From the NCBI GenBank assembly GCA_963729715.1, contig CAVSPA010000006.1, positions 192,001 to 256,000 of the forward strand: DNA of 64,000 nt, given 5' to 3'. How positions within the stretch are numbered: position 1 is the stretch's first letter; every line of letters begins with the position of its first letter. Shown one piece after another: positions 4,214 to 41,241 of this stretch. The DNA is from an uncultured delta proteobacterium (GTDB lineage Bacteria > Desulfobacterota > Syntrophia > Syntrophales > UBA2185). The notes below the pieces were generated by a model. That model saw only the letters and a program-made list of their open reading frames with translations, searched no databases and was not told where the DNA came from. The position numbers and the translations under genes were made by a program.

Positions 4214-4483
4214 GTGGATAAGTATGACCAATTAGAACTCAGGTGTGCACGGCTTGGGGGTGAGGTCAAGTTCTCATACTGCCGGAAGGAGGGCGGGAAC
4301 CTGCCGTGCCTTCGTGTCATCAATTGCTGGTATCCCTTTTTCCCCATAGAACAGTATCTGAGAGAGACCATGACTGAAGAGTCATGGAACGCTTTTGTCG
4401 GTCAGATGCCTAAAGACAAAATCACTACGCTTATCGAACTCGTTGAGGCGGCGAAAAAAAGTGCTCAAATCAAAGATGAATGA
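4214..4483 (+). CDS. Small Cys-containing hypothetical protein
   Basis: 3' part of ORF 4055..4483 (RCARLGGEV.FSYCR...PC....CW); GTG at 4214 chosen because the upstream part of the ORF is the repeat element; stop overlaps the rarA start (ATGA). Confidence 0.6.
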   Translation: MDKYDQLELRCARLGGEVKFSYCRKEGGNLPCLRVINCWYPFFPIEQYLRETMTEESWNAFVGQMPKDKITTLIELVEAAKKSAQIKDE

Positions 4484-5844
4484 CTATTATGGATCTCTTT
4501 GATCAGAAAGATACCGACATCGATCTTAGTCCTCTGGCAGACAAAGTGCGCCCCCGGGCTCTTGACGAATTCATCGGGCAGTCACACCTCCTGGGCCCAG
4601 GCAGCCTGCTTCGGCGCGCCATTGAAGAAGACAGGCTTTTCTCGATGATCTTCTGGGGACCGCCCGGCTCCGGAAAGACCACCCTGGCCCGCGTCATTGC
4701 CCATGAAACAAAATCCCATTTTGTGAGCTTCTCTGCGGTTCTTTCGGGCGTTAAAGAGATCAGGTCTGTTGTTGATGAGGCGCAATCTCAATGGCGCTAC
4801 CACCGTAAGAAGACGATCCTCTTTGTAGATGAAATCCACAGATTCAACAAGGCACAGCAGGACGCCTTCTTGCCCCATGTCGAAAAAGGCCTTATTACAC
4901 TCATTGGTGCGACTACGGAGAATCCCTCTTTTGAAGTAATCTCGCCGCTGCTATCCAGGACGCGGGTCATGCTGCTCAAGCCTTATTCGAACAGCGAACT
5001 GGCGGTTATTATCAACCGGGCCGTGCATGACAAAGAAAAAGGCTTCGGAGACCTTGCTCTTGAGATAGAGCCGGATGCCATTGAGCATATCATATGGTCA
5101 GCCGACGGAGACGCGCGCATGGCCTTAAACAACCTCGAGGCAGCAGCGTCTCTCCTGCGGAATGAGCAGATAGGCGCAAGAAAAATTACGCGCGCCGTAG
5201 TGGAGGAAGCCCTCCAGAAGAAGGCGTTGCAGTATGACAAGGGAGGGGAGGAACACTACAATCTCATCTCGGCGTTTCACAAGAGCCTTCGCGGCAGTGA
5301 CCCTGACGCCGCCCTCTACTGGTTGGGCCGCATGCTTGCCGCCGGCGAAGACCCTCTCTACATAGCCAGGCGCATGGTGAGATTCGCTTCCGAGGACGTT
5401 GGCAACGCCGATCCTGCAGCCTTGGGGATATCGGTTTCGGCCATGCAGGCGTTTCATTTTATCGGTCTCCCTGAAGGGGAACTCGCCCTGGCCCAGGCCG
5501 CCGTTTACCTTGCTACTGCTCCCAAGAGCAATTCACTTTATGTGGCTTACGGCAAGGTCAAAGAAAGGATAAGTGAAACCGGCACCCTCGCCGTGCCGCT
5601 TCATATAAGGAATGCTCCGACACGGTTGATGAAAGATCTTGGCTATGGCAAGGGGTATCAGTATGCCCATGAATTTGAGGATGCCTATGTTCCCCAAGAC
5701 TATCTGCCGGACGAACTCATGGGAGAGGTATATTACAGGCCTACGGCAAGGGGACATGAGAAGGTCATCAAAGATAGAATCGAGAAGTGGCGAAAGCTGC
5801 GAGAATCGACGCATGAACGAGGCAAAAAAAAGGGGGAGACGTGA
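4480..5844 (+). CDS. rarA: Replication-associated recombination protein A (MgsA AAA+ ATPase)
   Basis: WGPPGSGKTT, DEIHRFNKAQQD, GATTENPSF, KSLRGSDPDAA, SEDVGNAD motifs. Confidence 0.95.
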   Translation: MTIMDLFDQKDTDIDLSPLADKVRPRALDEFIGQSHLLGPGSLLRRAIEEDRLFSMIFWGPPGSGKTTLARVIAHETKSHFVSFSAVLSGVKEIRSVVDEAQSQWRYHRKKTILFVDEIHRFNKAQQDAFLPHVEKGLITLIGATTENPSFEVISPLLSRTRVMLLKPYSNSELAVIINRAVHDKEKGFGDLALEIEPDAIEHIIWSADGDARMALNNLEAAASLLRNEQIGARKITRAVVEEALQKKALQYDKGGEEHYNLISAFHKSLRGSDPDAALYWLGRMLAAGEDPLYIARRMVRFASEDVGNADPAALGISVSAMQAFHFIGLPEGELALAQAAVYLATAPKSNSLYVAYGKVKERISETGTLAVPLHIRNAPTRLMKDLGYGKGYQYAHEFEDAYVPQDYLPDELMGEVYYRPTARGHEKVIKDRIEKWRKLRESTHERGKKKGET

Positions 5845-5853
5845 TGTCTCCCC
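5824..5853 (-). terminator. Intrinsic terminator on the minus strand
   Basis: GGGGAGAC-ATCAC-GTCTCCCC then C and 8 T on the minus strand. Confidence 0.8.
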
Positions 5854-5950
5854 AAGGTCAGGAGGAGTGAAGGTGTTCACCTTCTTAGTTTTGGAGTTTA
5901 CTACCGGCCAATCATGCCCGTTTATTAACCGATAATTAACTTGTTGTTAT
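5824..5950 (-). ncRNA. Candidate sigma54-dependent small RNA with an anti-SD (ACUCCUCC) motif
   Basis: Bounded by a -24/-12 promoter (5961-5976) and an intrinsic terminator (5824-5853); no meaningful ORF between them; 5' end inferred. Confidence 0.6.
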
Positions 5951-5960
5951 GCTTTCAGAA

Positions 5961-5976
5961 TGCATATGTCATGCCA
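5961..5976 (-). promoter_or_regulatory. sigma54 (-24/-12) promoter
   Basis: Minus strand TGGCATGACATATGCA = GG-N10-GC; adjacent to a sigma54 activator gene. Confidence 0.7.
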
Positions 5977-6157
5977 TGATCTTGTAAGTTTATATAAGTT
6001 GTTTATATCACAGCACTAATGAGAGTATATCTGAGGCAAATGGCATGTATGCCGTGGGAAAGGAAGGGCAATAAATGTCGATGCGGAATAACGGTAAATA
6101 TTTATAGTGCTTGAAAAAACAAGTAGTTAAGGGATAAACGTCAATTGTTTTTGGGAT

Positions 6158-6171
6158 CGACATAATTGTCG
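6158..6171. promoter_or_regulatory. Candidate enhancer-binding-protein site
   Basis: Inverted repeat CGACA-N4-TGTCG; a second TGTCG half-site at 6076-6080. Confidence 0.45.
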
Positions 6172-6337
6172 GATTTTATTTTTCCAGAAAAAAGAAGTCA
6201 TTGACTTTTAATTCTGATGAAATATGATGGCATGCACTCCAAAAGACAGCAGAAATGCCGCATCCCTTCGGTGAATACGAATTGGGTATTTCGAGATAAA
6301 GAAGAATATAAATAATAACTTGCATAGGCATTCGCAG

Positions 6338-8128
6338 ATGAAGACGCAGAATAAAGTTATATGGCAGCAGCACCGCACTCCCGACTATGGCCGACGTTTT
6401 TTGCAGCCCATCGCTGTTACGATTGTCTGCAGCGTTTTCATCTGTCTTATCTTGATCATGGGGATCATGGACATCCGGCGAAGTGACAGGAGCCTCATGG
6501 GCTTCATGGAGAGCCAGGGCCTGGCCATAATCGGTGTCGTCGAGAGGCTCGCCCAGGAAAACCTCAATGCGCTGATTCAGGCGTATCAGAGGGATAGCGG
6601 CGGTACCTTTGCTCCCCCTGTTGATGAGGCCTTATTACCGCAGAAGTCACTGACCGCTGCGCTTGTGGATATGGGACGCGAAATTGATAATCAATGGAAG
6701 GCAAATCACCTGAGCGATGAATATCTGAGGAAATTTGCAGAAGAGAAGGGGCTGTGGTTTGTTGCCGTCTTGGATAGAAGGGGAAAGGTCGTCTACCAGA
6801 ACAGGGCTCTCCATGCGGATCTTACTGATGGGGATGCGAACAGGGTTTTGGGAAGAGATGCCATCACTATTGATCTTTTCTCACGACTCGGCAAGGACAA
6901 GAAGATCGGGTTTGTGGCACTACGGCGCACAGATGGCAGTGGGACAGTCATCATCGCTCTGGATCGCGACGGGCAGCGATATTGGGGCATTAAGGTATCG
7001 GTGGAAAAGGCCCTGGAAAGATTGGGACAGGGACAGGGTTTGGTCTATATTAAGGTCATGGATCAGCGAGACATGATCCTGGGCAGTTCTGGGCAAGCAC
7101 CTGATACAGAGGAACAAGGCAAGATGCGTATCGATGAAATCCTTGCCGGCACAAAAAAATTTGAAAGCAAAAAGATTGTCTCCCACGGCAAAAAAATCCT
7201 GGAGATGGCTGCACCCATATACCTGTTTGGCAGGGTGGCAGGGGTTGCTAGGCTTGGTCTTGATAGCGAGGGAACGGATGAAATTCTTGCTGAGAACAAG
7301 CGTAATATGATCTTCTTTATGTCATCGGTTATTCTAATTACGCTTTTGGCAATGTGGATACTCTATCACAATCAGAATAGGCATCTGGCGGGGATCGTCG
7401 AGATGGAAAGGCAGCTCGAAAAAGCCGAGAGACTGTCTGCCCTTGGGCAGCTCGCCGCAGGCGTCGCGCACGAGATTCGCAATCCACTTAATGCCATAAG
7501 TATGGCCAGTCAGAGACTTAAGCGGGAGTTTATGCCGGCAGATGACGACAAGATCAAGGAGTTCCAGACACTAGCCAGTGTTATTCGCGACGAAATCAGA
7601 CGTCTGGATGGGATTATCGAGGAGTTTCTGACATTCTCAAAGAGCCGGCGTTTGGAGCTGCACGACTACCCCGTTGCCGAGGTTCTTCAGAAGATTGTCA
7701 ATCTCATCCAGGAAGAGGCGAAATTGAAAGGTATCACTCTGGAAACCTTGTACAAAGGCAACCATGCAATCATCCCTATGGATGTGGATAAACTTCAGCA
7801 GGCCATTTTTAATTTCGTGAAGAATGCCATGGAATCTATTTCCGGCGAAGGTACTGTCCGTATTCTTGTTGATTCGAGCGGAAAGGACCGGGTCATAGTA
7901 AAAATTTCCGATAATGGGTGCGGTGTGGAACCTGAAGATATAGAGCGCATTTTCAATCCTGAATATACGACGAAGGAAAAGGGTCTGGGGCTCGGGCTTC
8001 CCCTTGCACATGAGATCATCCGCGGCCATGGGGGGGAGATTCGTGTTCTGAGTCAGCCGGGTTTAGGGACGACCTTCGAGATATCATTGCCTGCGGGAAG
8101 GGTGGGGGAAAAGAATGGCACGGTCTAA
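6338..8128 (+). CDS. Membrane sensor histidine kinase (ZraS/NtrB-like)
   Basis: Two TM segments flanking a periplasmic region; H-box AHEIRNPL, N-box, DNGCG, GLGLGL. Confidence 0.9.
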   Translation: MKTQNKVIWQQHRTPDYGRRFLQPIAVTIVCSVFICLILIMGIMDIRRSDRSLMGFMESQGLAIIGVVERLAQENLNALIQAYQRDSGGTFAPPVDEALLPQKSLTAALVDMGREIDNQWKANHLSDEYLRKFAEEKGLWFVAVLDRRGKVVYQNRALHADLTDGDANRVLGRDAITIDLFSRLGKDKKIGFVALRRTDGSGTVIIALDRDGQRYWGIKVSVEKALERLGQGQGLVYIKVMDQRDMILGSSGQAPDTEEQGKMRIDEILAGTKKFESKKIVSHGKKILEMAAPIYLFGRVAGVARLGLDSEGTDEILAENKRNMIFFMSSVILITLLAMWILYHNQNRHLAGIVEMERQLEKAERLSALGQLAAGVAHEIRNPLNAISMASQRLKREFMPADDDKIKEFQTLASVIRDEIRRLDGIIEEFLTFSKSRRLELHDYPVAEVLQKIVNLIQEEAKLKGITLETLYKGNHAIIPMDVDKLQQAIFNFVKNAMESISGEGTVRILVDSSGKDRVIVKISDNGCGVEPEDIERIFNPEYTTKEKGLGLGLPLAHEIIRGHGGEIRVLSQPGLGTTFEISLPAGRVGEKNGTV

Positions 8129-8140
8129 AGGAATTCAGGC

Positions 8141-9505
8141 ATGAAGAAGTTAAACATACTCGTGGTTGAGGATGGCCAGTCCCAGCGAGAGATGCTCCGA
8201 GATTTTCTCGTTAGAGAAGGGCATGCGGTAGCGGAGGCTGAGAATGGAGACACCGCCATCCAGTCTGTTTTAAAGGGTCATTTTGACATGATCCTCCTGG
8301 ATTACAAGATGCCGGGTATGGATGGCATGCAGGTTCTCAAAGAGGTGAAGAAAATCAATCCGGAAATCGATGTGATTATCATTACTGCTTACGGAACGAT
8401 AGAAACGGCAGTGGACGCCATGAAGGCCGGCGCCATAGACTATATTACAAAACCTGTTGAATTCGATGAACTCCTTATCCATGTGGATCGAGTATCAGAG
8501 CGGCGCACCCTGATCCGGGAAAATGAGGTTCTCCGTCAGGAACTCTCTGAGAAGGGCGTCACCATGGACAAGATCATTTATCAGAGCCATAAAATGGATG
8601 TCCTGATCAATATGGCCAGCAGGATCGCAGTGAGCCGCGCCACTGTTCTTATCAAGGGAGAAAGCGGAACGGGCAAGGAATTGCTTGCCAGGTTGATCCA
8701 CAATCTCAGCCCCCGTTCAGCAAAAGTGATCAGTGTGGTAAACTGCAGCGCACTTCCGGAGAGCCTCTTGGAAAGCGAACTATTCGGTCATGAGAAAGGG
8801 GCCTTCACCGGTGCAACGGCAAGGAGGATTGGCAGATTTGAGGAGGCCGACGGCGGGACCCTGTTCTTGGACGAGATTGGCGATATTACCGCCTCCGTCC
8901 AGGTAAAACTGCTGCGCTTCCTGCAGGAGCGCGAATTCCAGCGTGTGGGCGGCAATCAAACTATCCACTCTGATGTGCGGATTATCAGCGCAACGAATCG
9001 CGATCTGGAATCCAAGGTCAAAGACGGAACATTCAGGGAAGACCTATTCTACAGGTTGAATGTGGTTGTCATGGACATGCCACCGCTAAGAGAGAGAAAG
9101 GAAGACGTGCCCCTGCTCATAGATCACTTCCTGAAACGCTTTGCTGCGGATAACGGTAAAAACGTAACGGGCATAACCAGCGAGGCCAGGGACCTGCTCC
9201 TGAAATATGATTATCCGGGCAATGTCAGGGAACTGGAAAATATCATCGAACGTGCTGTCGTGATATCCCGAAATTCTGTCATCTCCGTAGATGATCTTCC
9301 ATTTGACGAAGACAGGATCCATCCGGAAAACGCAGGGAAAAAAGGAGAGGGTTTGCTGCGGGAATCGATTGAAGAAATGGAACGCAAATTGATTCTCGAG
9401 GCCATGGAGAAGTCAGGTGATCATCAGACAAAGGCCGCTGAAATCCTCGGTATCAGCGAACGCATGCTGCGATACAAACTTAAAAAATACGGCCTGAAGG
9501 AATGA
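8141..9505 (+). CDS. sigma54-dependent response regulator (ZraR/NtrC family)
   Basis: REC domain, [15 protein letters not shown]-terminal Fis-type HTH. Confidence 0.93.
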
Positions 9506-39141: not shown

Positions 39142-39217
39142 GGGCCCATAGCTCAATTGGAAGAGCCACCGGCTCATAACCGGTAGGTCCCTGGTTCGAA
39201 CCCAGGTGGGCCCACCA
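39142..39217 (+). tRNA. tRNA with CAT anticodon, probably tRNA-Ile2 (lysidine) rather than Met
   Basis: 76-nt cloverleaf, GGGCCCA/TGGGCCC acceptor stem, CTCATAA anticodon loop, GGTTCGAA, encoded CCA; G1-C72 pair excludes the initiator. Confidence 0.93.
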
Positions 39218-40860: not shown

Positions 40861-41241
40861 GGTGTTGGAGCAGATCAGATGATCGCTGGCCCGGTCTTCC
40901 GGGCTGGAGGAAAGTCCGAGCTCCGCAGGGCAGGATGGTCGCTAACGGCGACTGGGGGTGACCCTAAGGAAAGTGCCACAGAAAATATACCGCCTGTCAT
41001 TGGCAGGTAAGGGTGAAAAGGCGAGGTAAGAGCTCACCAGTTTCCCGGGTGACCGGGAAAGCTTGGTAAACCCCATCCGGAGCAAGACCAAATAGGAGAA
41101 CAATAAAAGTGGCCCGCTTGTCGTTCTCGGGTAGTGTCGCTTGAGGCAGCAGGCAACTGCTGTCCCAGATGAATGATCATCACCGCCTTTCTGGTGACGG
41201 AAAAGCGGGACAGAACTCGGCTTATGATCTGGTCTGACACC
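40861..41241 (+). ncRNA. rnpB: RNase P RNA (type A)
   Basis: GAGGAAAGTCC, GAAAGTGCCACAGAAA, GGTAAACCCC, ACAGAACTCGGCTTA; the two termini pair as P1. Confidence 0.96.

Follow-up and report, generated by a model that had tools for sequence, protein, structure and literature searches.

A candidate sigma54-dependent small RNA of the Syntrophales, predicted to pair at two points with porin-like outer-membrane protein mRNAs

The small RNAs (sRNAs) MicA and RybB are sigmaE- and Hfq-dependent and act through linear seeds, and RNAIII of Staphylococcus aureus is the output of a two-component system. Here we describe an sRNA gene in the genome of an uncultured bacterium of the Syntrophales, found in a stretch of 64,000 nt (assembly GCA_963729715.1, contig CAVSPA010000006.1, positions 192,001 to 256,000; "the window" below). 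The gene is flanked by a convergent rarA-like gene and a divergent pair encoding a sensor kinase and an NtrC-type activator (Table 1). An earlier reading of the sequence alone (the sequence-only reading) had suggested here a sigma54-dependent base-pairing RNA, transcribed as the output of the divergent pair and possibly linked to envelope stress; all the comparative evidence is consistent with such an RNA. We propose that it is likely an Hfq-independent repressor that would contact porin mRNAs at two points, and that it probably originated from a 3' untranslated region (UTR).

The closest described systems each resemble this one in part. CpxQ, according to the portions of the reports available to us, arises from the cpxP 3'UTR in Enterobacteriales, is cut by RNase E, requires Hfq and targets nhaB, skp and other mRNAs; it is the RNA arm of a two-component envelope response, as we propose for the RNA described here, and both are linked to an mRNA for a periplasmic protein of the LTXXQ family (PMC4817254, PMC9438474). 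Our RNA differs in having a sigma54/NtrC promoter, a host in which Hfq was not found and an outer-membrane barrel as predicted target; in most lineages no open reading frame (ORF) is left and the RNA forms an independent gene, and there is no sequence likeness to CpxQ (Rfam negative). With MicA and RybB, as far as the accessible part of the source goes, it shares an inferred lowering of outer-membrane protein synthesis under envelope stress (PMC1804206); it would depart from them in its sigma54 dependence and in combining a loop-loop contact with a ribosome-site contact. Two contacts of just this kind, a loop-loop kiss in the 5'UTR and one at the ribosome site, are described in the available part of the account of RNAIII acting on rot and coa (PMC8383071), whereas RNAIII is long, comes from a Gram-positive bacterium, acts on other targets and has no homology to ours. 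In the same phylum, Desulfovibrio vulgaris has sigma54-dependent non-coding RNAs in the DVU0653, DVU0679, DVU1419 and DVU2359 regulons, DVU1419 being listed under envelope stress with such an RNA, so that there too enhancer-binding proteins have non-coding RNA targets (PMC3333781, PMC4641369). These RNAs, compared here by description only, lie downstream of the regulator or elsewhere, and the parts of the two reports available state no target for them. The RNA belongs to none of the CpxQ, MicA/RybB or RNAIII families. A literature search that covered few subscription papers returned no description of it and no sRNA-target pair from the Syntrophales.

A DNA search gave a match in 29 of 61 genomes, and 27 loci were aligned, each lying between rarA and the kinase gene. 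A covariance model was built from these 27 seed copies and 55 copies were inspected; counts out of 55 lean upward, because the copies were chosen with that model. The model matches 87 of 151 Syntrophales genomes, in 15 of 24 families, a count that may include a few false positives near E 0.01, since three weak second matches inside the order, in genomes G057, G015 and G012, looked like bare terminators (here and below, G stands for a genome, G000 being the window's own, L for a locus, f for a family, g for a genus and C for a contig). Outside the Syntrophales it found weak matches in 7 of 146 genomes, with E at best 7e-4, and in the own genome the RNA is present as a single copy. With Rfam 15, the check that the sequence-only reading had called for, no family reached the gathering threshold in the RNA region (best E 0.11, everything far under threshold), 17 related loci gave no match, and the whole window yielded only RNase P class A RNA (40867-41239) and a tRNA (39142-39214), both outside the RNA region.

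The strict sigma54 promoter pattern is present in 51 of the 55 homologous copies and a looser pattern in 54. CGACA and GTCG of the distal enhancer site (UAS1) are invariant in 20 of 20 aligned loci, and the site is found with at most one mismatch in 51 of 55 copies. The proximal site (UAS2), 91 bp away, has a CGACA that is likewise invariant in 20 of 20 aligned loci, and it occurs in 50 of 55 copies. A site matching, with at most one mismatch, what we take to be the consensus of integration host factor (IHF) was found in 29 of 55 copies vs 413 of 5500 shuffled windows (7.5%). The promoter, the terminator, the second hairpin and the inverted repeat at UAS1 are all present where the sequence-only reading had placed them; its half-site at 6076-6080 is real and proved to be one half of the conserved, imperfect 14-bp UAS2. 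As that reading had also said, the only ATG ORF between promoter and terminator, MIGR, has 4 codons; considered as a gene it was rejected, being unconserved, and no conserved ORF was found on either strand across the related loci. The locus thus has the anatomy of a sigma54-dependent sRNA gene: a conserved -24/-12 promoter, enhancer sites, a terminator and no conserved ORF.

The predicted fold of the RNA, with an energy of -38 kcal/mol (z -3.73), has three hairpins, and none of 200 shuffled sequences was as stable. Covariation was found in all helices: 26 of 27 pairs are altered on both sides in the model-fitted alignment, which is biased towards the structure, and in the 5' hairpin P1 this holds for 10 of 11 inner pairs (55-copy alignment, likewise fitted to the model). 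In the seed alignment the share of paired cells is 91%, and numerous U-G/U-A changes agree with the minus strand, as do the many one-sided changes of this type in P1. The most conserved part of the RNA is the P1 loop (CGGGCAUG), which reads GGG(C/U)A in 55 of 55 copies and has a predicted unpaired probability of 0.78-1.0. The CU tract downstream is looser: CTCCTG or CCTCCT occurs in 42 of 55 copies, and the strict CTCCTCC, for which conservation had been expected alongside the promoter, in only 15. That this RNA gene is genuine is in our judgement very likely. A further segment, GUAAACUCCAAAA (5892-5902, minus strand), lies between P1 and the second hairpin P2 and is conserved in several families and in f20.

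A scan of the called genes of the own genome with the P1 loop led to three paralogues of one protein family. The proteins have a signal peptide and a C-terminal Phe and match Alginate_exp, and their predicted fold, a beta-barrel, resembles AlgE and Campylobacter MOMP most; N-terminal matches to DESULF_POR1 (NF033939) reach 72 and 66 bits against a cut-off of 250. As they score below that cut-off and the beta-barrel fold is supported, we term them porin-like. TGCCCG stands at -41 to -45 in all three paralogues vs 35 of 3615 genes, and in two of the three the ribosome site is CAGGAGGA, the complement of the RNA's UCCUCCUG. The CU tract that the sequence-only reading had named as the seed does therefore match the ribosome-binding site of a conserved target, but the main seed is the P1 loop, which that reading had overlooked. 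For two-site energy the paralogues rank 1, 4 and 5 of 3615, in windows picked after the paralogues had been seen. A first two-site ranking of the genome, with a loop window of -12 to +25, did not place the porins among the top 30; they emerged in the loop-alone list only, with a window of -60 to +40. Three other candidates were set aside: a second TGCCCG within the codons for the porin signal peptide, which the own genome has and relatives mostly lack; genes whose products begin with Met-Pro, the loop then covering the start codon, where none of 29 matches stood out; and the own zraP/spy mRNA, for which inspection by eye gave only a short Shine-Dalgarno match. One porin paralogue (G000 C6:184713) is found just beyond the edge of the window, at a distance of about 13 kb from the RNA gene, and a like proximity is seen in G003, G005 and G015.

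The pairing was followed through 87 porin 5'UTRs from 50 genomes. Excluded were L189 (75 nt at a contig end), L210 (a duplicate of L151), porin matches without a 5' end, L273 and L274 (f13, no reliable start) and the RNA-bearing genomes without a usable porin match (G023, G028, G057, G371 and G374). At least 6 Watson-Crick pairs to the genome's own loop were found in at least one porin paralogue in 37 of 39 loop-bearing genomes, from 13 families, and in 52 of the 74 porin UTRs of these genomes, compared with 104 of 3700 shuffled windows; among genomes that lack the loop the count was 1 of 11. The loop and its site change together: GGGGCAU faces AUGCCCC (G051), GGGUAU faces AUACCCG (G035, G054), UGGGC faces GCCCA (G038) and CCGGGCAG faces CUGCCCGG (G405, G367). 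When genomes were permuted, own pairing exceeded 20000 of 20000 permutations for seed 1 (the P1 loop) and again for seed 2 (the CU tract), with median p of 0.015 and 0.0125, respectively, when one genome per family was used. The porin site lies in a stem of at least 7 pairs in 46 of 50 sites vs 22 of 59 control sites, and the sequence of that stem varies freely. In f15 seed 2 is displaced and covers the porin start codon; in f13 and f15 the seed 2 contact over the Shine-Dalgarno sequence or start codon is AUGAAGAG. Accessible conserved seeds, a conserved mRNA site and compensatory change, as found here, mark a trans-acting base-pairing RNA, and we consider it very likely that the porin mRNA is its direct target.

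Hfq (PF17209) was not found in any of the 61 genomes searched, while control genomes were positive; the host thus lacks a detectable Hfq of the kind on which Mic-type sRNAs depend. In the mechanism that we propose, the kinase would phosphorylate the NtrC-type activator, which, judging from the conserved anatomy, would bind UAS1 and UAS2 and open the sigma54 promoter. The RNA of about 127 nt would then bind, free of Hfq, the mRNA of the porin-like outer-membrane beta-barrel at two points, both supported by covariation: the P1 loop (CGGGCA) would kiss a UGCCCG loop, carried by a hairpin that precedes the start codon by about 37-59 nt, and the single-stranded UCCUCCUG would pair with the ribosome-binding site CAGGAGGA. 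With the ribosome site covered, translation would be blocked and porin synthesis lowered. Repression through both contacts is, on this comparative evidence, a likely outcome. The signal is probably envelope stress, because the ancestral output of the promoter appears to be a periplasmic protein of the Spy/ZraP/CpxP type.

Several observations weigh against this picture. The permutation figures overstate independence because the genomes are related, and the starts in the own-genome set of 3615 genes come from a crude script. G363 and G406 have the loop and no site in the single porin UTR seen; 22 of the 74 porin paralogue UTRs have no site; G358 has TGCCCG without the RNA loop; and one porin paralogue of G322 presents UACCCG opposite a GGGCAU loop. 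In f6, and in genus g22 of f16, the second seed is weak or missing. Because the two contacts stand in parallel order on both RNAs, joint binding would need a crossed geometry or a stepwise path. Of six RNA-library runs, each a small share, four were compared with the region; the contigs that cover it (5846-5981 and 5749-5976) extend upstream past the promoter, with strand and ends not discernible, and are therefore evidence neither for nor against transcription.

It is rather unlikely, though compatible with porin repression, that the RNA has many targets of which the porins are one, dsrC and cstA being examples. The dsrC gene of the own genome (C7:496913 minus, L135) starts CAUGCCCG behind UAGGAGG, complementary to both seeds, in G038 dsrC starts AUGCCCA where the loop is UGGGCA, and a cstA-like gene and others have an upstream TGCCCG; against this, a search of 5 RNA-bearing genomes found no dsrC in 2 of them, and the dsrC of G051 yields only 5 pairs. 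By eye, L135 sits in a cluster resembling dsrAB and dsrMKJOP, and its support in relatives is weak. Two genes of the own genome are candidates for secondary targets: the cstA-like one, so named by eye, at G000 C4:180852 (plus strand), whose TGCCCG stands at -44, and a small one at G000 C7:295224 (minus strand), which has TGCCCG as well as CAGGAGG.

The RNA might also pair with the porin mRNA and activate or stabilise it, or work mainly by nuclease recruitment. The loop contact, about 30 nt upstream of the ribosome site, persists in f6 and in g22 of f16 where seed 2 is degenerate, as such a mode of action would allow; in most families, however, seed 2 lies over the Shine-Dalgarno sequence or start codon, and in predicted folds the UTR hairpin usually leaves the ribosome site exposed, which makes this alternative improbable.

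Several sigma54-driven RNAs are decoys, and the genome has a CsrA gene, so a protein-binding decoy of the CsrB/RsmZ or GlmY type deserves mention. The RNA is without the repeated GGA loops that characterise CsrB/RsmZ, and its conserved loop covaries with a site in an mRNA, a pattern that binding to a protein would leave unexplained; we regard a decoy as very improbable. No more credible is a dead remnant of a spy/zraP deletion, or a mere rarA terminator or cis-antisense element. Relatives do carry a spy/zraP-like ORF behind the promoter, the finding that the sequence-only reading had said would make the locus a deletion remnant, and in the window the terminator overlaps the end of rarA. The stems covary, however, and the RNA covaries with its target, so that the ORF in relatives signals the origin of the RNA rather than a dead remnant; the RNA is kept in 15 families and occurs in extra copies. 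As for rarA, it adjoins the RNA in 43 of 55 copies and the two overlap in 25 of those 43, that is, in just 25 of 55, and the plus strand has no U run: the antisense overlap that had been pointed out is real here, but unconserved and incidental. A plus-strand peptide gene of 20 codons (GTG at 5873, AGGAGG as ribosome site) has good Shine-Dalgarno spacing in the window, but it is frameshifted within the same genus, its start codon is missing from 11 of 27 loci, and it can be dismissed.

Porin repression by an RNA of 3'UTR origin is the reading that we pursue, and the slot behind the promoter bears on that origin. Seven orthologous kinase loci outside the order have a similar enhancer and promoter driving a Spy/ZraP-type ORF (Pfam verified on three), and at 12 other loci outside the order an ORF of this type lies upstream, within the same operon. 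Inside the order, the promoter drives a Spy/ZraP-type gene in 6 of the 10 genomes of family f13, with ORFs matching PF07813 and PF13801, and in the other 4 of 10 the ORF is gone and a 3'UTR element is kept. This element, a hairpin with loop CACGUUU or CUGCAUU followed by a CU seed and a terminator, lies in the 3'UTR of a CpxP/Spy/ZraP-family mRNA in 5 of the 6 ORF-bearing f13 genomes, whereas the window RNA has no ORF. After AAACGUG had been seen in one porin loop of G052, the prediction that f13 porins carry the complement of the element's loop was recorded before it was tested; the test did not cover G414 and G033. It held in 6 of 7 further genomes with a porin: besides G052, the source of the idea, AAACGUG porin loops face CACGUUU in G390, G402 and G377, and AAUGCAG loops face CUGCAUU in G445, G436 and G426. 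It failed in G364, where the predicted porin site is missing. The f13 CU seed pairs across the porin start codon.

In a quick kinase tree with a midpoint root, 33 sampled loci of the GGGCA type group into a single clade together with a degenerate copy (SH-aLRT 100), and f13 with f5 is sister to the rest of the order; this position implies at least three losses of the ORF. Two results count against a shared origin of the f13 element and the window RNA: a sequence-only model of that element picks up nothing but terminators in other families and leaves the window copy unmatched, and the likeness between the two sequences is limited to the terminator. We nonetheless favour common descent over independent replacement because of position, layout, shared target sites and the kinase tree, and hold with moderate confidence that the RNA derives from the 3'UTR of a Spy/ZraP/CpxP-type chaperone mRNA after loss of the ORF. 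With a shade less confidence we suggest that the order preserves the birth of a stand-alone sRNA gene, in which the ORF was lost at least three times from a spy/zraP-type mRNA with a 3'UTR that was already silencing a porin by loop kissing, so that the RNA became the sole output of the two-component system, and in which RNA and target loops co-drifted through at least three sequence pairs, all without Hfq.

The sequence-only reading had called the pair ZraSR-like. In arrangement the two are alike: as in ZraSR-ZraP, a kinase and an NtrC-type activator are divergent from a sigma54 promoter, where relatives have a PF13801 protein. Against the NCBIfam ZraS and ZraR equivalog models, however, the pair scores 204 of 479 and 470 of 760 bits, under both cut-offs, whereas a closer ZraSR homologue elsewhere in the genome (contig C7), divergent from a zraP/spy-like gene, scores 455 of 479 and 597 of 760. 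Judged by these scores, the window pair is a ZraSR paralogue and not the closest homologue. A zraP-type gene divergent from it is absent in the window and present at the orthologous kinases in f13 and in the 7 loci outside the order. At the second pair (G000 C7:94933-98840; L260, L134) the zraP/spy-like gene has its own sigma54 promoter, and none of the CGACA-N4-TGTCG sites listed by a genome-wide scan lies there.

Extra RNA copies with their own enhancer sites and promoter lie away from the kinase and rarA in L111 (G058 C89) and L121 (G368 C1), and L117 (G026 C126) holds a tandem duplicate 960 bp apart; the RNA is therefore the unit that gets copied. A further copy (L116:766-889, G015 C7) stands directly behind a His-rich, membrane-like ORF of about 50 codons; it has no sigma54 promoter and may have gone back to being part of a 3'UTR. 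At L263 a small ORF of a similar kind is accompanied by a CU tract and a terminator. In L052 (G030, f10) an ORF of about 150 aa with a signal-peptide-like start lies between the RNA terminator and rarA. Three loci of g22 in f16 (L125, L206, L207) have TGA for TGC at -12 of the promoter and lack the CU seed, and their loop still fits the porin site. Other ORF-less sequences stand behind the same promoter in f7 (L228, L230), f2 (L232, L056), f5 (L236, L237, L239) and f20 (L234, L238), most with a CUCCUCC-like tract and a similar terminator and without the GGGCA loop, those of f20 retaining only GUAAACUCCAAAA; they are probably further sRNA variants. The CU tracts of such variants in G025, G358 and G022 match the ribosome sites of their own porins.

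Table 1. Features of the sRNA locus and its neighbours (positions in the window)
Feature	Position	Strand	Remarks
Small non-coding RNA, ~127 nt	5824..5950	-	start 5950 inferred from -12 spacing
Hairpin P1 (long, 5')	5896..5940	-	fold and covariation
Seed 1, P1 loop ACGGGCAUG	5913..5921	-	complementary to UGCCCG loop of porin 5'UTR hairpin
Hairpin P2, dispensable spacer	5869..5884	-	missing in some families
Seed 2, ACUCCUCCUGA, CU tract	5858..5868	-	complementary to porin mRNA ribosome-binding site CAGGAGGA
Intrinsic terminator, stem 5853-5833 and 8-U run to 5824	5824..5853	-	GC stem; 98.9% of cells paired, 55 copies
Sigma54 (-24/-12) promoter TGGCATGACATATGC, GG-N10-GC	5962..5976	-	sequence and conservation
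IHF-like site between enhancer and promoter	5995..6007	-	at most one mismatch in 29 of 55 copies
Proximal enhancer site UAS2, imperfect palindrome, minus strand CGACA-TTTA-TTGCC	6067..6080		14 bp, conserved
Distal enhancer site UAS1, CGACA-N4-TGTCG	6158..6171		putative binding site of NtrC-type activator
Membrane sensor histidine kinase (sCache_3_2, HisKA, HATPase_c)	6320..8128	+	likely start ATG at 6338
NtrC-type sigma54 activator (receiver, AAA+, Fis-type helix-turn-helix)	8141..9505	+	domain matches
rarA-like AAA ATPase, convergent neighbour	4480..5844	+	last codons overlap terminator; outside mechanism

The targets of sRNAs can seldom be assigned from genomes alone; in this case, compensatory changes that arose in nature point out the target as well as the two sites of contact. 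If true, this Gram-negative order, in which Hfq was not found, would have a porin repressor driven by sigma54, and a likely envelope role would be assigned to a two-component system of syntrophic bacteria. The series in f13, from ORF with UTR to UTR alone, offers a testable route for the origin of an sRNA gene that parallels CpxP/CpxQ and goes one step further, and the naturally occurring RNA and target loop pairs are ready-made swap pairs for a reporter test.

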